Assembly: GCA_046726415.1 (NCBI GenBank)
Contig: JBKPAK010000128.1
Location: 1 to 26,026 of the forward strand
Direction of reading: 5' to 3'
Length of the DNA: 26,026 nucleotides
Origin: Candidatus Methylomirabilota bacterium
Lineage (GTDB): Bacteria > Methylomirabilota > Methylomirabilia > Rokubacteriales > CSP1-6
Translations under genes and position numbers: made by a program
The notes under the pieces: generated by a model
Database searches by the model: none
Seen by the model: only the letters and a program-made list of their open reading frames with translations
Told to the model about the DNA's origin: nothing
Shown here: piece by piece, positions 1 through 26,026 of the stretch
Numbering within the stretch: the stretch's first letter is position 1
How the letters are laid out: each line of letters begins with the position of its first letter

Positions 1-56
1 CCCCAGGCTCGTGCGAACCTCGGAGCTAGCTAATGCCGCACCTCGGGGAGGCCTCC

Positions 57-1286
57 ATGTCCGCGAACGTGTCCGACTTCACTTTCCTGCAGGGCGTGAA
101 GATCGTCGATTTCACGCAGTTCGAGGCTGGTCCGTCCTGCACCGAGGCCCTCGCCTGGATGGGTGCCGATGTCGTGAAGATCGAAAACCCTAAAATGGGC
201 GACCCCGGCCGCCGTCTCCGCCCCGGTCAGCCGGACGACGACCCCTACTACTTCCACGCCTTCAACGCCAACAAGCAGTCCATCACGGTCAATCTCAAGT
301 CGCCCAAGGGACTCGAGCTGGTCAAGGGCCTAATCCAGAAGGCCGACGTGATGATCGAGAACTTTGCTCCCGGCGCCATCGAGCGGCTGGGCCTGTCGTA
401 CGACGTCGTGCAGGCTATCAATCCGGGGATCATCTACGCGCAGGTCAAGGGCTTCGGCGAGGGCAGCCCGTTCGAGCAGAACCTGGCCTTCGACATGATC
501 GCTCAGGCCTGCGGCGGCACGTTCAGCGTCACCGGGGACAAGAACGGCCCACCCATCCGGCCCGGCATCTCGATCGGAGATACCGGGACGGGCATGCTGA
601 TGGCCATCACCATCCTGAGCGCCCTGTACAAGCGCCGCGAGACCGGCGAGGGTCATCGCCTGCAAGTGGCCATGCAGGACGCCATGCTGCACTACATGCG
701 GATTAACTTCGCGACCCAGGGTCTGACGGGCAAGGCGGCCGAGCGCGGAGGCAGCAAGGTGCCGGGCGTGACCAACGCGCCGATGGGGCTCTATCCCTGC
801 GCGCCCGGCGGGCCGAACGACTATGTCTACATCATGACCAGCCGAGCGAACCCCGACCACTGGGACCGCCTGCTGAAGCTCATGGGACGGGAGGATCTGA
901 TCGGCGACGAGCGCTATCGCGCCCCGGCCGACCGCGTCGCGCGGGAAGTCGAGGTGGACGAAATCATCTCCACCTGGACCCGCACGCACACCAAGCTCGA
1001 CGCCATGAAGCTGATCGGCGACGCTGGTATTCCGGCCGGCGCAGTGCTCGACACGGACGAGCTCAACAAGGACGTCACGTTCGAGCAGCGAGGGATCATG
1101 CAGACGATGGTCCATCCCGTGCACCGGCCCTTCAAGATGCCGGGCTGGCCCGTGCGTGTTGATGGTCAGCCCACGCGCGTCAAAGCGTCGCCCGTGCTGG
1201 GCGAGCACACGGACCGAGTGTTGAACGAATGGCTCGGCCTGAACGCCCAGGCCGTGGCCACGCTGAAGAGCGAAGGCGTGGTCTGA
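57..1286 (+). CDS. Family III (CaiB/BaiF) CoA-transferase, formyl-CoA transferase-like
   Basis: LQGVKIVDFTQFEAGPSC..LAWMGADVVKIE, FNANKQSITVNLK, IENFAPG, catalytic Asp in ISIGDTGTG, C-terminal PVLGEHT. ATG57 preferred over ATG33 because of a GGGGAG RBS at 45-50. Confidence 0.92.
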   Translation: MSANVSDFTFLQGVKIVDFTQFEAGPSCTEALAWMGADVVKIENPKMGDPGRRLRPGQPDDDPYYFHAFNANKQSITVNLKSPKGLELVKGLIQKADVMIENFAPGAIERLGLSYDVVQAINPGIIYAQVKGFGEGSPFEQNLAFDMIAQACGGTFSVTGDKNGPPIRPGISIGDTGTGMLMAITILSALYKRRETGEGHRLQVAMQDAMLHYMRINFATQGLTGKAAERGGSKVPGVTNAPMGLYPCAPGGPNDYVYIMTSRANPDHWDRLLKLMGREDLIGDERYRAPADRVAREVEVDEIISTWTRTHTKLDAMKLIGDAGIPAGAVLDTDELNKDVTFEQRGIMQTMVHPVHRPFKMPGWPVRVDGQPTRVKASPVLGEHTDRVLNEWLGLNAQAVATLKSEGVV

Positions 1287-1400
1287 TCGGCTGATCCGCG
1301 CACGACACGCGGCACTCGAGCTGCGCGATCCGAGGGCGACAAGGTGAATGGCGCGCTCGCCGCGAGAGCGAGCGCCCGAAGGATTTTTTCCGCAAAGCGT

Positions 1401-1433
1401 CTACCTGCCCTTGAGCTTCACATCCTCGTAGGG
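1401..1433 (-). pseudogene. 3' tail remnant of an ABC substrate-binding protein gene
   Basis: Minus strand reads PYEDVKLKGR*, nearly identical to the PYEDVKLKGK* end of the intact gene at 14823-16361. The shared ACGCT continues past the stop in both. Confidence 0.75.
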
Positions 1434-1485
1434 ACACGCGCGAGCCGGGGGCAGCCGGGGTGCCTGGGTGAGGAGGGAGGAGGAG
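1431..1485. repeat. Dispersed 55-bp repeat, copy 1
   Basis: 49/55 identical, ungapped, to 6915-6969 by manual alignment; core GCAGCCGGGGTGCCTGGGTGAGGAG. Confidence 0.9.
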
Positions 1486-1624
1486 CACCACGAGGAAAGG
1501 CCTCGAGCTCTTCATCGCGCTGTGGCGCTTCGTCGACGGCGGCCTCCTGCCGCCGGGCGCGGTGCTGCGCGCCGCCTGAGCGGCCGCGACGGGTCGCGGC
1601 CGCGGATCACACCAGGAGGAGGCA

Positions 1625-1810
1625 GGGGTTGGTCAACGCGCTCGTTGGGGGGCCGGATCGCCCGCGGCGACCGTTTTCGAGAGGGAGCGCGTTGCCCCCG
1701 CGGTTCCGCCTGCGCCACAGGCGCATAGTGATCGGGTGCCTGACCCAGAGTCAGCACGGATAGAAGGTGGTCGAGCCCTCGCCTCGGCTCTCATGGAACC
1801 GGCCAACCCC
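1625..1810 (+). ncRNA. Putative bridge/seek RNA of the IS110-family remnant
   Basis: Nested helices read from sequence: 1625-1632/1803-1810; 1634-1643/1685-1694 enclosing an internal loop and hairpin 1654-1673; 1702-1707/1795-1800 enclosing hairpins 1708-1722, 1736-1757 and 1773-1790. Lies downstream of the transposase stop. Confidence 0.6.
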
Positions 1811-1867
1811 CCGCTGCCCTCGCCCGCTCACGGCAGCGACTGCGATGCGGACACGGAGCGCGGAGAC

Positions 1868-1873
1868 TTGACA
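1868..1873 (+). promoter_or_regulatory. Outward-facing -35 box (TTGACA) at the IS right end
   Basis: Perfect TTGACA with no -10 at 17-bp spacing in situ. IS1111-like elements complete this promoter at the circle junction. Confidence 0.5.
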
Positions 1874-1920
1874 GGGGGCCCCTCATAGCAGGCCCCCCAT
1901 GTTATTAACCAAGGCGGGAT

Positions 1921-2337
1921 AAGACGGCGGCCGGCCGGCACCTCTCCGTGTGCCATCCGGACAATCCCCAAATCCGCGATGTGACCTTCACCGAGTTCGC
2001 CATGCCCTTCGCCGGCCCGGGCACGGTGAGCCGGAACGCGGTGATCGTCTCCCCAGGCCGCATCGACCGCAGCCCGTGTGGCACCGGGACGTCGGCGCGA
2101 CTGGCGGTGCTGCACGCGCGCGGGCAGCTCGCCCCGGTTCGGGGGTTCATTCACGAATCCATCATCGGCTCGCGCTTCGAGGCGGCCATCGCTGGCCACA
2201 CGACGGTGGGAGGACAGCCGGGTATTGTTCCGACCATCGCCGGCCAGGCGTGGATCACCGGCGTGTTCCAGCACGGCCTCGATCCGTCCGACCCGTTCCG
2301 GAACGGCTACACGCTGCCCGATCTGTGGTTCGCCTGA
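1921..2337 (+). pseudogene. Proline racemase/hydroxyproline epimerase family, C-terminal fragment
   Basis: Contains the signature DRSPCGTGTSA plus ESIIGSRF, IAGQAWITG and DPSDPFRNGY. An in-frame TAA lies at 1906-1908, and the N-terminal half with the first catalytic residue (MCGH-type motif) is absent. Confidence 0.85.
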
Positions 2338-6008: not shown

Positions 6009-6203
6009 ATGGGAGGGAACCCGTGGGAGGGTTGCGGTTCGATCCAGACGACGGACGAGCTGGTCGAGGCCTTGAGCCGGGCCTCCGAGGCTGCGTGGGG
6101 GGCTGAAGCCCTCCCCGACCTGCGCGCGTCTCTGACCACGAGGGCTCAGGCGATCCGGTTGATCAACCAGGAGGCGTTCGCGCCGGGGGATGTCGAGCCA
6201 TGA
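6009..6203 (+). CDS. Small acidic protein coupled to the amidase (possible GatC/AtzG-like partner)
   Basis: 64 aa; its TGA overlaps the amidase ATG (ATGA at 6200-6203); ends ..GDVEP. Start codon uncertain. Confidence 0.5.
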   Translation: MGGNPWEGCGSIQTTDELVEALSRASEAAWGAEALPDLRASLTTRAQAIRLINQEAFAPGDVEP

Positions 6204-6900
6204 GCGTCGCCGCGACGGCGCCCCACGAGCTCACCGCGCGCGAGGCCGCCGCCCTCATCCGGCGCCGGAAGGTCTCGTCCCTGGAGCTGGTCAAGGCGTT
6301 GCTGGCCCGCATCGAGCGAATCGAGCCCACGCTGCGCTCGTTCGTCACGGTCGATGCTGACGGGGCGCGCGCGGCCGCCAAGGCGACCGACGCCGCGCTC
6401 CAGGCCGGACAGAAACTGAGCGTCCTTCACGGCGTCCCGTTCGCGGCCAAGGATATCTATGACGCCGAAGGCCTGCCGACCACGGCCGGCTATCCGACGC
6501 TGTCCGGCAACGTGGCGCGGGCCGATGCGTTCACGGTCGCCCGCATGAAATCCGCGGGCGCGGTGCTCATCGGCAAGACGGTGACGACTCAGTTCGCCGC
6601 GGGCGACCCGTCGCCCACGCGGAATCCATGGCGGGCCGATCGCACGCCGGGCGGATCGAGCAGCGGGTCGGGCGCCGCCGTGGCCGCTCGGCTCGTGCCC
6701 ATCGCGCTCGGCACGCAGACGGGTGGGTCGCTCCTGCGCCCCGCTGCCTACAATGGCGTGGTCGGGCTCAAGCCCACGTACGGCCGCGTCAGCCGGCGCG
6801 GGATCGTCCCGCTCTCGTGGACGCTCGACCACGCGGGCCCTCTGGTGCGCAGGGTGCGGCAGAGGACGGAGCCCTCCGGCTGGCGGCGCTGATAGGTCGG
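6200..6900 (+). pseudogene. Amidase signature family protein, 3'-truncated and frameshifted
   Basis: LHGVPFAAKD, TPGGSSSGS, GTQTGGSLLRPAAYNG, LDHAGPL. The expected continuation (EDGALRLAALIG) is in another frame after about 6857 and homology ends near 6900, about half the usual length. Confidence 0.85.
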
Positions 6901-6914
6901 CAGGGCACAGAGCA

Positions 6915-6969
6915 GGGGCACGCGCACGCCGGGTGCAGCCGGGGTGCCTGGGTGAGGAGCGACGAGGAG
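6915..6969. repeat. Dispersed 55-bp repeat, copy 2
   Basis: 49/55 identical to 1431-1485, same orientation. Confidence 0.9.
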
Positions 6970-7216: not shown

Positions 7217-7330
7217 TGGCTGGTGGCCGTTACGCCGGGTGGAACGCGGGGGGCAAGCCCACGGCGGAGGTCATGGGCCGCGGCAAGTCAAGGGGGATCC
7301 CGAAGGACCCATCGTGAGGGGGAGGCGACG

Positions 7331-8569
7331 ATGAGTGGTGTGTACGACGGCCTCACCGTGGTCGAGCTGGCCGATCGCCGCAACCAGTGGGCTGGCAAGC
7401 TTCTGGCCGACGGCGGCGCGCGGGTGATCCAGATCGAGCCGCCCGGTGGCAGTCCGGGACGATGGTGCGGCCCCTTCGTCGACGACGCGGTCGATTCCGA
7501 CCGCTGCCTCGACTACTGGTGGTACAACACCGGCAAGCAGAGCGTCGCCCTCGACATCGGCCGCCAGCCGGCCCAGGACCTTCTCCGGCAACTGCTAGCC
7601 AGGGCGGACATCTTCCTCGAAAGCACGCCGCCGGGAACGCTGCGTCCGTACGGCCTCGACTACGGGTCCGTCTCGAGCCACCGTGCGCTCATCTACGCGT
7701 CGCTGACCGACTTCGGTCAGGACGGCCCGTGGCGCGATTACCAGATGAACGACGCCGCGCACCTGGCCCTGGGCGGCCACATGGCGAGCACCGGATATTC
7801 CGACCCGAGCCTCACACCGATCGGCGGGCAGGGTCACCAGGCGTGGCACATGGGCTGCGTCTTCGCACTCCACGGGATCACGCTCGCTCTCTTCGACCGC
7901 ATGACGAGCGGACAAGGCCAGCACATCGACGTGGCGATCCACGACGCCTGCGCGATCGGCACCGAGGCGGCGGTGCCCGAGTGGCTGTACAACGGCGCGA
8001 CGCTCTACCGGCAGACCGGCATGCACGCCTCGACGCGGCGGCAACCTGACCTCGAGCTGCCCACGGCAGACGGCATGTACGTGATCGCAGTGAACCAGAC
8101 CTTTGGCGACCAGGGCTGGGCGAAGCTGATCGAGTGGATGGAGGAGAAGGGCGTTGCCGGCGAGCTGACCGACCCGAAGTACCGCGACGAAGCCGTCCGC
8201 ATGACCGACTATCGCCAGGGGACGGCCGTCCGCGACGGGATCCGCCGATTGATCGCCGCCACCAAGGGCGAGGAGGTTTTCGCCCGCGCGCAGGCGTACG
8301 GCATCTCGTGGGGGCTCGTCCGCGCACCGGAGGAGAACTACGATGTCCCGCATTACCAGCAGCGCGCCTTCTGGCGTGCCGTCGAGCACCCGGAGATCGG
8401 CCGGGCCGTTCCCTACCCGCGCGGCCCGTTCATGTCGGAGGCGCTCGGGATCACCCCACGGGGGCGAGCACCGCATCTGGGCGAGCACACGCGGCAGGTT
8501 CTGGAAACCGATCTTGGTCTGCCCGCCGCTCAAATCGATGCGCTCGCCGCGGCCGGAGTCATTCGATGA
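7331..8569 (+). CDS. Family III CoA-transferase, BbsE-like subunit lacking the catalytic Asp
   Basis: GLTVVELAD..AGKLLADGGARVIQIEPP, YNTGKQSVALD, RAPHLGEHT; GHQAWHMG at the catalytic Asp position; GGAGG RBS before ATG7331. Confidence 0.9.
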   Translation: MSGVYDGLTVVELADRRNQWAGKLLADGGARVIQIEPPGGSPGRWCGPFVDDAVDSDRCLDYWWYNTGKQSVALDIGRQPAQDLLRQLLARADIFLESTPPGTLRPYGLDYGSVSSHRALIYASLTDFGQDGPWRDYQMNDAAHLALGGHMASTGYSDPSLTPIGGQGHQAWHMGCVFALHGITLALFDRMTSGQGQHIDVAIHDACAIGTEAAVPEWLYNGATLYRQTGMHASTRRQPDLELPTADGMYVIAVNQTFGDQGWAKLIEWMEEKGVAGELTDPKYRDEAVRMTDYRQGTAVRDGIRRLIAATKGEEVFARAQAYGISWGLVRAPEENYDVPHYQQRAFWRAVEHPEIGRAVPYPRGPFMSEALGITPRGRAPHLGEHTRQVLETDLGLPAAQIDALAAAGVIR

Positions 8570-9906
8570 ACGCCCCGGGGACACTGCCCAAGGGCATCCT
8601 CAGCGGCGTCCGCATCCTCGACTTCACGTGGAAGACGGTGGGGCCGTGGGCTCCCCGCCTGCTCACCCACTTCGGCGCGGAAGTGATCCATGTCGAGCGG
8701 GTCGGATCGTGGGACGATCACCGCTACGCGGCCAACCCGAGCCCGATCGTCGAGGGCCCGCAGAAGGAGTTCACGTCGGGACAGGGCACCGGCCCCCTGC
8801 ACGGCGGGGGTCACGCCGACGGGAAAAAGCCCTACTACTCCACCCCGTACTTCACGATCCTGCACCACGGCAAGCTGGCGATCAGCCTGAACACGCGGCA
8901 TGCCAAGGGCCTCGCGCTGGCCAAGCGGCTCATCGGCATCTCCGACGCGGTGGTCGAAAACTTCAGCGGCGAGGTCTTCCCGAGCTGGGGGCTCACCTGG
9001 GAGCGCATCCACGAGATCAACCCGCGGACCGTGTACATGAGCACGTCGGGCTTCGGCCACTCCGGCCCCTTCAAGGCCTACCGGAGCTTCGGTCCCACCG
9101 CCGCGGCCCAGTCCGGTCTTTCGCTGACCTCCGGGCTGCCCGACAAGCCGCCGGCGGGCTGGGGCTTCTCCTTCATGGACGTGATGGGCGGATGGATGGG
9201 CAGCCTGGCCCTCATCATGGGGTTGCTCCAGGCCAGGAAAACCGGTGAGGGCCTCTACGTCGACTACGCGGTCACCGAGGGCGCGATGTCGCTGCTCGGG
9301 ACATACATGCTCGACTACCAGGTGAATGGCCGTTCCACCCGCCGCCCGGGATTTCCGCCCGGCAATCGATCCCGCTGGCCCGCGGTAGCGCCCCACAACA
9401 CCTATCGCTGTTCCGGCCAGGATCGGGTCGGGCAGGACTGGTGGGTCTTCATCGCCTGCGAGACGCAGGCGCAGTTCGAGTCGCTGGCGCGCCTCATGGG
9501 CCAGCCCGAGCTGTGCGTGGACCCGCGCTTCGCCACCAATGAGGCCCGCGTGGCCAACCAGGACGCGCTCGACGCGATCGTGGGCCGGTGGGTGCGGCCG
9601 CGACGGCGCTACGACGTCATGCGGCGGTGCCAGGAGGTCGACATCATCGCGGCGGTGGTGCAGAGCGCCGAGGACCGGGTCGAGCACGATCCGCAGCTGA
9701 AGCACCGCGACATGCACCCGGTTGTCCACCATCCGGAGATCGGCGACTTCGAGTACGAGGGCTATCCCGTCAAGCTCTCGCGGACGCCGGCCTTCGTACA
9801 CGGGCGGGGGCCGCTCCTGCGCGAGCACAACCGCTACGTCTACGGCGAGCTCCTCGGCCTGAGCGACGAGGAGATGAAATCGCTCGAAGACGAGAAAGTG
9901 ATCTGA
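8566..9906 (+). CDS. Family III CoA-transferase, BbsF-like catalytic subunit
   Basis: LSGVRILDFTW..GP, VVENFSG, SGFGHSGP, GFSFMDVMGG (Asp present), GPLLREHN. ATGA overlap with the upstream stop; the ORF-track start at 8134 is spurious. Confidence 0.9.
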   Translation: MNAPGTLPKGILSGVRILDFTWKTVGPWAPRLLTHFGAEVIHVERVGSWDDHRYAANPSPIVEGPQKEFTSGQGTGPLHGGGHADGKKPYYSTPYFTILHHGKLAISLNTRHAKGLALAKRLIGISDAVVENFSGEVFPSWGLTWERIHEINPRTVYMSTSGFGHSGPFKAYRSFGPTAAAQSGLSLTSGLPDKPPAGWGFSFMDVMGGWMGSLALIMGLLQARKTGEGLYVDYAVTEGAMSLLGTYMLDYQVNGRSTRRPGFPPGNRSRWPAVAPHNTYRCSGQDRVGQDWWVFIACETQAQFESLARLMGQPELCVDPRFATNEARVANQDALDAIVGRWVRPRRRYDVMRRCQEVDIIAAVVQSAEDRVEHDPQLKHRDMHPVVHHPEIGDFEYEGYPVKLSRTPAFVHGRGPLLREHNRYVYGELLGLSDEEMKSLEDEKVI

Positions 9907-14612: not shown

Positions 14613-14691
14613 GCGCGAGCGGTCGCGACGGGAGCCCCGCGTGGGCGGGGGCGTCTCCTCGGTCCGGTGCCGATTGGGGGCGATCGATGGG

Positions 14692-14720
14692 TTGATCTGA
14701 GTCGAAGGCGACGCTACCCT
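14692..14720 (+). promoter_or_regulatory. Possible sigma70 promoter of the substrate-binding protein gene
   Basis: TTGATC-N17-TACCCT. Confidence 0.4.
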
Positions 14721-14822
14721 CTCCGCACGAGCCCACCCTCCGCCACGGAGGTGGCCGTCATGCGGTTCCGGCCATCCGCGTCGCACACCACGTCCGGCGC
14801 AAAGGGCAATAAGGAGGCTTCC

Positions 14823-16361
14823 ATGATGAGACAGGTTCGAGGCCTCTTCGTGTCGTTGCTCGTCATCACGCTCGTGACGCTTGGTCCGTCGCTGTGCGCA
14901 GCGGCCCCCGAAGGTCAGATGATCTGGGGGGCCCACATCTCGCTCGCGCCCACCTGGTTCGACCCGGCCGAGACCTCGGGGATCATCACGCCGTTCATGG
15001 TGATTTACGCGTTGCACGACGCCGTGCTGAAGCCGATGCCGGGTCAGCCCCTGGCGCCAAGCCTCGCCGAGTCGTGGAGCATGTCCCCCGATGGTCTCGC
15101 CTACGACTTCGCCCTCCGCAAAGGGGTCAAGTTCCACAACGGTGAGACGGTCACCGCCGAGGACGTGAAGTTCTCCCTCGAGCGCTACCGGGGCGCCTCC
15201 GCCAAGGCTCTCCGGGAGAATGTCGCGGCGGTGGAGACCCCGGACCCCGGGCGCGTCCGCATCCGCCTCAAGCGACCGTGGCCCGACTTCATGACCTTCT
15301 ATATCGGCGCGACCGGTGCCGCCTGGATCGTCCCGAAGAAGTACGTCGAGAAGGTCGGCGACGAAGGCTTCAAGAAGGCGCCGGTCGGGGCCGGCCCGTA
15401 CAGATTTATCTCGTACACCCCGGGGGTGGAGCTGGTCCTGGAGGCCTTCGATCAGTACTGGAGGAAGGTGCCGAACGTCAAGCGGGTGATCCTGAGATCG
15501 ATCCCCGACGAGACCACGCGCCTGGCCGCGCTGAAGCGAGGCGAGATCGACATCGCTTATAACCTTCGGGGCGAGCTGGCCCAGGAGATCCGGCGCACGC
15601 CGGGGCTCACCCTCAAGCCCAACGTCGGCCAGGCCACGCACTGGGTCTACTTCGCCGACCAGTGGGATCCGAAATCGCCATGGCACGACCGGCGCGTGCG
15701 CCTGGCGGCGAACTACGCCATCGATCGGCCCGCGATGAACGAGGCGGACGCTCTCGGATTCGCCAAGATCACCTGGAGTATCATTCCCTCGAGCTTCGAG
15801 TTCTACTGGCAGCCGCCCGGCTATGCGTATGATCGGGCCCGCGCCAAGCAACTCCTCGCCGAGGCCGGGTACCCCAACGGCTTCGACGCCGGCGACTACT
15901 TTTGCGACGCCGCGATCACCAATATCGGCGAGCCCGCCGTCAACTATCTGAACGCGGCGGGCATCCGGGTGAAGCTCCGTCCGGTGGAGCGCGCCGCCTA
16001 CTTCAAAGGATGGTCCGAGAGGAAGTACAAGGGGCTCATCCACGGCGCCAGCGGTGCCTTCGGCAACGCCGCCACCAGACTCGAGGCCTTCATCGTCGGG
16101 GGCGGCACCTACGCCTACGGCAGCTACGCCGACATCGATGGCCTCTTCGCGGAGCAGGCCGGCGAGCTCGACCCGAAGCGGCGCGAGGCGACCCTGCACC
16201 GCATCCAGCAGCTCGTCCACGAGAGGGTGATGGTCGCGCCGATCTGGCTGAACGCTGGCCTGTCCGGTCTGGGGCCACGCGTCGAGGAGTCGGGAATCGG
16301 GCTCATCGCCGGGTTCGCCTGGTCCGGCCCGTACGAGGACGTGAAGCTCAAGGGCAAGTAG
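14823..16361 (+). CDS. ABC transporter substrate-binding protein, family 5 (DppA/OppA-like), orphan
   Basis: Signal peptide, PSLAESW, LRKGVKFHNG..VTAEDVKFS, PVGAGPY, D.RVR.A.NYAIDR, AKQLLAEAGYPNGF; AAGGAGG RBS. Confidence 0.95.
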   Translation: MMRQVRGLFVSLLVITLVTLGPSLCAAAPEGQMIWGAHISLAPTWFDPAETSGIITPFMVIYALHDAVLKPMPGQPLAPSLAESWSMSPDGLAYDFALRKGVKFHNGETVTAEDVKFSLERYRGASAKALRENVAAVETPDPGRVRIRLKRPWPDFMTFYIGATGAAWIVPKKYVEKVGDEGFKKAPVGAGPYRFISYTPGVELVLEAFDQYWRKVPNVKRVILRSIPDETTRLAALKRGEIDIAYNLRGELAQEIRRTPGLTLKPNVGQATHWVYFADQWDPKSPWHDRRVRLAANYAIDRPAMNEADALGFAKITWSIIPSSFEFYWQPPGYAYDRARAKQLLAEAGYPNGFDAGDYFCDAAITNIGEPAVNYLNAAGIRVKLRPVERAAYFKGWSERKYKGLIHGASGAFGNAATRLEAFIVGGGTYAYGSYADIDGLFAEQAGELDPKRREATLHRIQQLVHERVMVAPIWLNAGLSGLGPRVEESGIGLIAGFAWSGPYEDVKLKGK

Positions 16362-16409
16362 ACGCTCGGCGGGAGGACCGCCGGACGGCGGTGTGGGTGA
16401 CCGCCTGGG

Positions 16410-25923: not shown

Positions 25924-26026
25924 ATGTCGCAGAAGACCGCGCTAGAGGATGTGAAGGTCCTCGATCTGACCCAGTTCGAGGCCGGAACCTCATGCACTGA
26001 GGCGCTCGCCTGGCTGGGCGCCGATG
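25924..26026 (+). CDS. Family III CoA-transferase, 5' end (runs off the window)
   Basis: [34 protein letters not shown], a close paralog of 57-1286; GAGGAG RBS. Confidence 0.88.

Follow-up and report, generated by a model that had tools for sequence, protein, structure and literature searches.

The window analysed here is the entire contig JBKPAK010000128.1 (26,026 nucleotides, nt) of a Candidatus Methylomirabilota genome (GCA_046726415.1, here G000, with the contig as G000:C128; 7.6 Mb, 352 contigs, G+C ~70%). At ~1508-1891 it very probably holds the 5'-truncated right (3') part of an insertion sequence (IS) of the IS110 family, IS1111 type, whose downstream RNA folds into two arms, arm 1 being the loop that reads the target and arm 2 the part that reads the donor. 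Four observations carry this assignment: the homology to a full element, a fold that covaries among relatives, guide sequences that change together with the flanking DNA, and the place of the right boundary. This mechanism has been described before for the bridge RNAs, or seekRNAs, of IS110/IS1111 elements, and the finding leaves it unchanged. The novelty lies in a small clade whose members show three natural target specificities, together with a hint that the bottom-strand guides span recombinant junctions. The window copy itself is a dead fossil: its transposase gene, its left end and its left flank are gone.

How can an element be recognised when almost all of its transposase gene is missing? 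The window keeps the last ~23 codons and nothing upstream of them, and these codons alone have no Pfam match. The region is placed in the IS110 family because of its homology to L051, a 2,770-base-pair (bp) soil metagenome contig that a two-end pattern search brought up. L051 carries a complete element of 1,528 bp made of a 7-nt left extension, a left inverted repeat, the transposase gene, a non-coding stretch and the right end, and its non-coding stretch and right end align with window 1508-1898. The L051 transposase ends in …LLIALWRFVDAGLIPDGATLRAA, to be compared with …LFIALWRFVDGGLLPPGAVLRAA in the window; in the DNA alignment the transposase homology may start slightly earlier, at ~1491, with an indel. 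From the stop codon to the element end at 1891 there are 313 nt of downstream non-coding DNA, and the same layout is found in L051, L053, L055 and L056. The transposase of L051 scores 62.6 bits on PF02371 and 21.1 bits on PF01548, the latter below the 29-bit cut-off. That of L055 is intact, with 381 amino acids (the length in L053 as well), and scores 170.7 bits on the NCBIfam model NF033542 'IS110 family RNA-guided transposase' (cut-off 140), 55.1 bits on PF02371 and 20.7 bits on PF01548 (again under the cut-off of 29). The sequence GLTPTPYQSG, an instance of the GL-P----S(t)G motif, is present in L053 and L055, and L051 has GLTPTPYASD; in the window copy the region of this motif is deleted.

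Searches for further copies returned few. Within G000, BLAST with words of 11 and 7 found no second copy of 1600-1900, and a DNA search in 60 relatives gave one real match, in the genome G003 (contig C22), 85% identical to window 1843-1895. A strict end pattern was found in two of 183 genomes of the order, in one metagenome contig and in one genome contig that is the same record as G003. Searches with half of the transposase (matches in four of 251 genomes) and with a 14-nt RNA motif, GCACGGATAGAAGG (nine places in eight of 251 genomes; the reversed control pattern had four hits), added L053, L055, L056, L057, L068 and L075, all in the phylum Methylomirabilota. Two of the places with the RNA motif, L071 and L073, were discarded as chance hits, since they fall in coding DNA and show no other feature; L054, a fifth transposase match, has no recognisable RNA or end in its 385 downstream bases and is excluded from all counts. 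Together, these copies make up a small clade that had not been described before; in this analysis it was seen in Methylomirabilota genomes and soil metagenomes only. Several of its members are decaying, as the transposase gene of L051 (L051:588-1757) has one in-frame stop and the frame of L056 is garbled in its first half in a frameshift-like way. In G003 (C22:169-469; L030/L052) there is a derivative of 301 bp that has the two ends and the two inverted repeats but neither transposase gene nor RNA; it resembles a miniature non-autonomous copy or the product of an internal deletion. The window was also compared with DNA contigs from other studies (runs X1-X4). Some contigs of X2 and X3 match only 1512-1533 and 1750-1774 and then run into other sequence; before 1512 such loose ends resemble the conserved …IGIVAVARKL… part of the transposase, and the contigs are read as related full elements from other soil samples.

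The structure of the RNA emerged only with the relatives. Folded as a single sequence, it is unremarkable and does not outdo shuffled sequences (z +0.50 for the + strand, -1.34 for the - strand). From an alignment of eight RNAs (the window, L051, L053, L055, L056, L057, L068 and L075; ~195 positions, the RNA length in the clade being ~195 nt), RNAalifold predicts 53 pairs, 18 of them compensatory, and 94.8% of cells are paired versus 31-44% after sliding the partners by 1-3 columns. Of 500 shuffles, none attains the observed values on four of five measures, and 16 do so for the count of further pair types; the eight RNAs are kin, four of them close, so that the shuffle and pair figures overstate independence and the slid controls are fairer. 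Helix 5, in arm 2 (alignment columns 84-91 with 193-200), has compensatory changes in seven of its eight pairs. A covariance model built for this RNA (R1) scores the window at 131.7 bits. Rfam has no match at gathering score in the whole window, and in 1250-2000 a search with E up to 10 yields just three matches, all unrelated and scoring 14-18 bits; a sequence match to solved chains gave no hit at E up to 0.01.

The strongest evidence for what this RNA reads lies in arm 1. The first-pass annotation had pointed out that TGGGGGGCC (1646-1654), almost entirely in the unpaired 5' strand of this arm, is the exact reverse complement of GGCCCCCCA (1891-1899). The complementarity is exact, the remaining coordinates are right as well (CATAG at 1724-1728 and 1884-1888, TTTTCGAGAGG at 1674-1684, GGGGGCC at 1874-1880), and the consensus fold of the eight RNAs puts 1644-1654 in an internal loop. 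How often would such a match turn up by chance? Among 200,000 random 22-mers drawn from the window's own genome, 58 had a complement of at least 9 nt to the 11-nt strand 1644-1654, 86 had one to either arm-1 strand, and 2 had one at the observed offset. Is the same correspondence seen in the relatives? The unbroken complementarity of the arm-1 5' strand to the last element base plus flank was determined for every right end. To its own right end the run is 9 nt in the window, 7 nt in L051 (9 of 10 positions), 6 nt in each of L053, L055, L056, L068 and L075, and 1 nt in L057. Own-flank complementarity is therefore 6-9 nt in seven of the eight copies (only three independent target groups, as the four L055-group copies are close kin), and between groups it is only 1-3 nt. 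The window and L051, whose loops are near-identical, cross-match at 7-8 nt, and both match the flank of G003 at 5 nt. Last element base and flank read GGCCCCC, GGCGGC and GGTGCC in the three target groups, whose flanks (GCCCCC, GCGGC, GTGCC) differ at three positions, and the RNAs read GGGGGCC, GCCGCC and GGCACC. Loop and flank thus change together across three distinct targets, with one miss (one of four groups); because cognate runs are 6-9 nt and non-cognate runs 1-3 nt, arm 1 is read as the target-binding loop, as had been proposed.

The opposite strand of arm 1 seems to do something different. TTTTCGAGAGG had been taken to predict the lost left half-target, and of the whole strand, GTTTTCGAGAGG (1673-1684), this holds for ~GTTTT only; the remaining CGAGAG repeats the first bases of the left end of the element itself, which starts with similar sequences in relatives (CGAGATA, TTAGATC, CGAGATC). 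In L053 the RNA reads CGCGTTAGA and its own left junction CGCG/TTAGA (the slash marks the element boundary), agreeing at 9 of 9 positions. In L055 these are CCACTGAGAT and CCAC/CGAGAT (9 of 10), in L056 the agreement is 8 of 10, and the G003 junction CGTTT/GGAGAT fits the L051 loop CGTTTCGAGAT. The arm-1 3' strand thus comprises 4-5 nt of left target and 5-6 nt of left end, and probably only its first 4-5 nt read the target. Since the window has lost its own left junction, the RNA serves as a predictor: the lost left half-target would have ended in GTTTT. As for the predicted uninterrupted target in G000, GTTTTGCCCCCCA has no hit, TTTTGCCCCCC two and TTTGCCCCCCA three, none of them hairpin-like by eye.

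Where does the element end? All nine right ends compared have CTTGACA (CTTGCCA in G003), then 8-11 nt, then [C/A]ATAG plus 3 nt, after which they diverge. What follows the right end in the L055 group is the beginning of a secreted-protein gene (GTGCCC ATG CGG CTG ATC…), and an uninterrupted paralog in the genome G096 (L087, G096:C8) reads …CCAG/GTGCCCATGCGG…, its match starting at the same base as the element boundary; given this paralog, host DNA begins precisely at that base in the L055 group. When the flanks of L055 are joined with a 7-nt left extension they give CCAC/GTGCCC…, against CCAG/GTGCCC… in the G096 paralog. The empty-site pattern search gave 49 hits in 43 of 159 genomes; four read CCAGGTGCCCATGCGGCTGAT, of which L087 was the one looked at, and most are of the CCACGTGCC[C/G]ATGCA[C/T]CTGAT type, one per genome and conserved-gene-like. 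The elements L055, L056, L068 and L075 directly precede the ATG of paralogous secreted-protein genes, and uninterrupted paralogs with CCAG before GTGCCC number three in G096 and one in the genome G076. Because of the divergence of the nine right ends after CATAG plus 3 nt, and of the G096 paralog, the window element is taken to end at 1891: on these alignments G1891 is element DNA and 1892-1899 are flank. CATAG at 1884-1888, which had been named the terminus, is correctly positioned, but it is the outer end of the subterminal repeat and the element is 3 nt longer. The first-pass annotation had also allowed for a boundary that takes in 1891-1899; across the nine right ends this applies to 1891, and 1892-1899 fall outside the element.

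At the opposite end, the relatives have 7 nt (CGAGATA, GGAGATG, TTAGATC or CGAGATC) before CTATG. Their subterminal inverted repeats match at ~14 of 15 positions with one indel in L051 and G003, over 9 bp in L053, over 8 bp in L056 and over ~8 bp with one indel in L055. The outward-facing TTGACA hexamer near the right end is a candidate -35 box of a promoter that would form on the circular junction; by eye, no convincing -10 box is present on the inferred circle junction.

Arm 2 had been proposed as the donor-binding loop, and both of its linkers support this by matching element ends. In the 5' linker, GCATAGT of the window is a 7-nt complement of the left end of L051, and in the L053 and L055 groups AGGAT pairs with ATCCT of the left end over 5 nt; cognate groups reach 5-7 nt and non-cognate ones 2-5 nt. 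The 3' linker, GGATAGAAGG, corresponds to the right end plus the first flank base(s) and is identical to the own right junction over 7-9 nt in seven of eight copies; linker and right end are both invariant, so there is no covariation. The evidence for a donor reader in arm 2 is weaker than that for target reading in arm 1, because the element ends hardly vary. What of the CATAG at 1724-1728, described earlier as single-stranded and the same as the terminus? Its TAG is unpaired, but C1724 and A1725 are paired in a small hairpin. The sequence identity is real, but it is not conserved at this place (CATAG in one RNA of eight, CATAT in one, and six that differ). This CATAG is probably better read as the complement of CTATG in the left repeat, with the invariant GGATAGAAGG as the clearer match to the right end.

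Taken together, the following model can be drawn. IS1111-type elements encode a DEDD (RuvC-like) transposase with a C-terminal PF02371 domain and, downstream of it, a two-arm non-coding RNA, arm 1 reading the target and arm 2 the element's own ends. The arm-1 5' strand (1646-1654) would be the right-target guide for the site where this copy once inserted, and the 3' strand of the same arm would take ~GTTTT from the left target and CGAGAG from the element's own left end. In arm 2 the 5' linker would pair with the left end, and the 3' linker would be identical to the right end. From the complementarities we infer that the pairing takes place during transposition.

Several observations weigh against this reading. 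L057, one of the eight copies and one of the four specificity groups, shows no guide-flank match, and the independent target groups number only three. The flank of the window can pair with the element itself: GGGGGCC (1874-1880) and GGCCCCC form a hairpin of 7 bp, with counterparts of 10 bp in L051 and 5 bp in G003. The left flank of L051 (CCCGT) misfits its own 3' strand (CGTTT), and the window's own 3' linker matches its right junction over 4 nt only, since 1889 is a C (extension CAG). The guide sequence is also common, with 235 copies on both strands of the genome versus 58 in a uniform genome, and the earlier caveat about a low-complexity G-run is therefore fair, but this roughly fourfold excess does not explain a match that only 58 of 200,000 random 22-mers reproduced. 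A near-identical strain in X2 has G instead of C at 1896, which reduces the run from 9 to 5 nt; such a shortened match is as expected, because the copy is a fossil under no constraint. A search of 151 family genomes with R1 found matches in five, all already known, and hence no new copies.

Could 1891-1897 then be element DNA after all, with GGGGGCC/GGCCCCC as a terminal hairpin (a terminator or end structure) and the loop match as its by-product? The hairpin is there in all three copies of the group, perfect over its 10 bp in L051, and both single-sequence folds predict it. The explanation is very unlikely nonetheless, as beyond CATAG plus 3 nt only GCCC is common to the three flanks, which differ from there on, and in the L053 and L055 groups no comparable hairpin exists (3-4 bp by eye), yet the loops follow the flank. 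The flank of the L055 group, moreover, consists of host coding DNA, of which a paralog exists without interruption. The two flanks of L051, …AGGGGGCCCGT on the left and GCCCCCT… on the right, would pair into a terminator-like hairpin immediately behind the upstream gene, and because of this pairing, the right hairpin arm is read as half of a palindromic target; the G003 flanks likewise form a terminator-like hairpin, a less perfect one. That the 9-nt complement is nothing but a fortuitous match of G/C runs in a 70% G+C genome, with no target reading here, would sit well with its low complexity and abundance, with the unremarkable single-sequence fold (z +0.50) and with the X2 strain that lacks the full run. 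It is highly improbable in view of the chance test, above all of the 2 in 200,000 at the same offset, and of the six other copies in which the same loop position matches the flank with two other sequences. It is barely conceivable that the remnant is still in use, its RNA acting in trans with a resident IS110-family transposase or its TTGACA driving downstream genes. G000 does hold 11 matches to PF01548 (nine over the family cut-off) and 12 to PF02371, the spot is rearranged relative to both same-genus genomes, and the X2 strain has at most three differences over 1375-1971. But the left end is missing, and the nearest transposases are a 3'-truncated fragment of the L055 type (78.6% identity, residues 1-206) and other genes at 25-36%; no intact cognate transposase was found in the assembly. 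The fragment, at G000:C13:20434-21170, has a left end TGAGATC CTATGAAGG and the first ~206 codons, followed by IS21-like genes (IstB-like by eye). Its left junction GCCAG/TGAGATC fits the L055-group RNA strand CCACTGAGAT and misfits the window guide; for this reason, the fragment and the window remnant are not halves of one element.

The reading of the remnant as an RNA-guided IS1111-type element can be set beside known systems. The family is described as having subterminal repeats, 7-nt left and 3-nt right extensions, a non-coding region downstream of the transposase gene, and a transposase of 330-350 amino acids (PMC11187229). In IS1111-type seekRNAs the top-strand complement lies 5' of the bottom-strand match (PMC11187229), and the order is the reverse in IS621 (PMC11208160). 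The length of subterminal repeats is given as 7-17 bp (PMC11208160) versus usually 11-13 bp (PMC11187229), and a promoter forming on the circular junction is described for the family (PMC11187229). The present elements resemble ISEc11, ISPa11, ISKpn4 and ISPst6 as described by Siddiquee et al. 2024 (PMC11187229) in the 3' non-coding region, the subterminal repeats and the 7/3-nt extensions, in having the top-strand complement first in the RNA, in that related elements with different loops lie in different targets, and in the GL-P----SG motif, here in L053 and L055. They differ from that account (PMC11187229) in the longer transposase (381 versus 330-350 amino acids), in repeats of 8-14 bp versus usually 11-13, in the host phylum Methylomirabilota and, for the window copy, in having neither transposase gene nor left end. 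In addition, 5-6 nt of the bottom-strand guide here repeat the start of the left end, a difference as set against the text descriptions of IS1111-type elements (PMC11187229). The element may sit in a side branch with a 3' non-coding region, its placement in the clade being by features.

The bridge RNA of IS621, a member of the IS110 group (Durrant et al. 2024, PMC11208160; Hiraizumi et al. 2024, PMC11208158), likewise has two internal loops, the first for the target and the second for the donor, each reading both strands; its guides cross the crossover point, and a promoter is said to form on the circular junction. The RNA of IS621, however, is part of the left end and precedes the gene (PMC11208160), whereas here it lies downstream. 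Here, unlike there, the 5' side of the loop reads the top strand (PMC11208160), and the subterminal repeats of IS621 are only 2-3 bp (PMC11208160), while arm 2 here is a multi-branch structure with three hairpins. Similar to ISPpu9 and its small RNA Ssr9 of Pseudomonas putida (PMC12288879), this is an IS110-family element with a small-RNA gene downstream, and extra RNA-gene copies without transposase occur there too. The copies of ISPpu9/Ssr9 are multiple and lie in repetitive palindromes of one genome (PMC12288879), unlike the single remnant here, for which no repeated target family was found.

What might the composite strands of the RNA mean? A rather unlikely proposal, drawn from sequence comparison, is that in this clade the bottom-strand guide of each arm would span the recombinant junction and not a substrate, and that the group of L051 and the window would target hairpin loops. 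If the first part were true, it would imply either a very long 'handshake' pairing (5-6 nt versus 2 nt in IS621) or an RNA tuned to recognising the integrated element for excision. If the second part were, the group would aim at the loop of G/C-rich terminator-like hairpins, and insertion would rebuild a similar hairpin from the element's own subterminal repeat and the right half-target. Whatever the fate of this proposal, a genome fragment is enough to read off the target specificity of an IS1111-type element, even when the copy is dead and comes from an uncultured soil phylum, and the three natural target changes offer a ready test set for the rules of RNA-guided recombination.

Table 1. Coordinates of the element remnant, its RNA and the adjoining features in the window
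Feature	Position	Strand	Basis or remark
CoA-transferase III gene	33-1286		Pfam
Intergenic stretch	1287-1947		Between CoA-transferase III gene and proline racemase remnant
Last ~23 transposase codons (…LFIALWRFVDGGLLPPGAVLRAA)	1508-1578	+	Stop TGA 1576-1578; frame-3 translation compared with L051, L055 and L053 C-termini
Structured non-coding RNA, bridge RNA / long seekRNA type	1625-1810	+	~185 nt; closing helix 1625-1633/1802-1810; RNAalifold, 8 copies
Arm 1, target-binding loop	1634-1694	+	Outer stem 1634-1643/1685-1694; 5' strand 1644-1654; inner hairpin 1655-1672; 3' strand 1673-1684
Putative right-target guide TGGGGGGCC	1646-1654	+	Complementary to top strand of 1891-1899; cognate/non-cognate matrix; chance test
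Arm-1 3' strand GTTTTCGAGAGG	1673-1684	+	GTTTT, predicted end of lost left target; CGAGAG, copy of the start of the element's left end
Arm 2, putative donor-binding part	1700-1801	+	Covarying outer stem, three hairpins, two single-stranded linkers
5' linker of arm 2 GCGCATAGTGATCGGG	1721-1736	+	Contains CATAG; complementary to left end (…ACTATGC) of L051-type elements
3' linker of arm 2 GGATAGAAGG	1758-1767	+	Invariant in 8/8 RNAs; same sequence as right terminus ATAGAAG plus first flank base
TTGACA hexamer, outward-facing	1868-1873	+	15 nt from end; kept in 8/9 right ends (TTGCCA in G003)
Right subterminal inverted repeat GGGGGCCCCTCATAG	1874-1888	+	Inverted repeat with left end in relatives; left copy lost in the window
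3-nt terminal extension CAG	1889-1891	+	AAG in 8 other right ends; flanks diverge directly afterwards
Remaining 33 nt of original target locus	1892-1924	+	First 8 nt (GCCCCCCA), right half-target
Proline racemase gene, last third only	1948-2337		Pfam positions 205-325 of 325

The remnant lies in a patchwork. In none of six open reading frames tested across 1344-2274 was there a Pfam match. Directly beyond the element, the 33 nt at 1892-1924 are the sole leftover of the target locus: DNA searches, those of the relatives' genomes included, found no relative of them, and homology to the proline racemase gene of the same-genus genome G002 begins only at 1925. Both the remnant and the empty site are absent from the same-genus genomes G001 and G002, each of which continues with a different gene behind the CoA-transferase gene. 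The DNA of the patchwork is real, because independent contigs span it: one of X2 (741 nt, from another study) covers 1231-1971 with 12 differences, and one of X4 (285 nt, from a third study) covers 1725-2010. Nine of the ten differences listed for X2 fall in 1296-1374. A single 207-nt contig of X1, 94% like 1195-1371, jumps to 2517 and skips 1145 nt, with a far side of only 30 nt; it may come from a related strain without the entire scar.

Upstream of the remnant, 1390-1433 holds, in reverse complement, the 3' end of a solute-binding-protein gene (…PYEDVKLKGR*). The intact gene lies at 14667-16361; its end is 89% like this piece, which makes an inverted repeat with 16329-16372. In G001 (L065, G001:C47) that gene (97% identity with window 16374-14776) comes right behind the CoA-transferase gene and is convergent with it, and because of this neighbourhood the window is considered rearranged, with a breakpoint near 1433. 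A direct repeat of 56 nt (1430-1485 and 6914-6969, 89% identical) has no further copies in the genome; its second copy comes after an amidase gene truncated at its 3' end (6200-6892, Pfam positions 1-197 of 445). Between the two copies lies a 5.4-kb block with the IS remnant and what is left of the proline racemase gene; G002 lacks this block at the corresponding place. The contig starts and ends in the 5' parts of paralogous CoA-transferase III genes (91-171 versus 25946-26026; 81 nt, 80% alike), and two further paralogs lie inside it, at 7223-8569 and 8134-9906.

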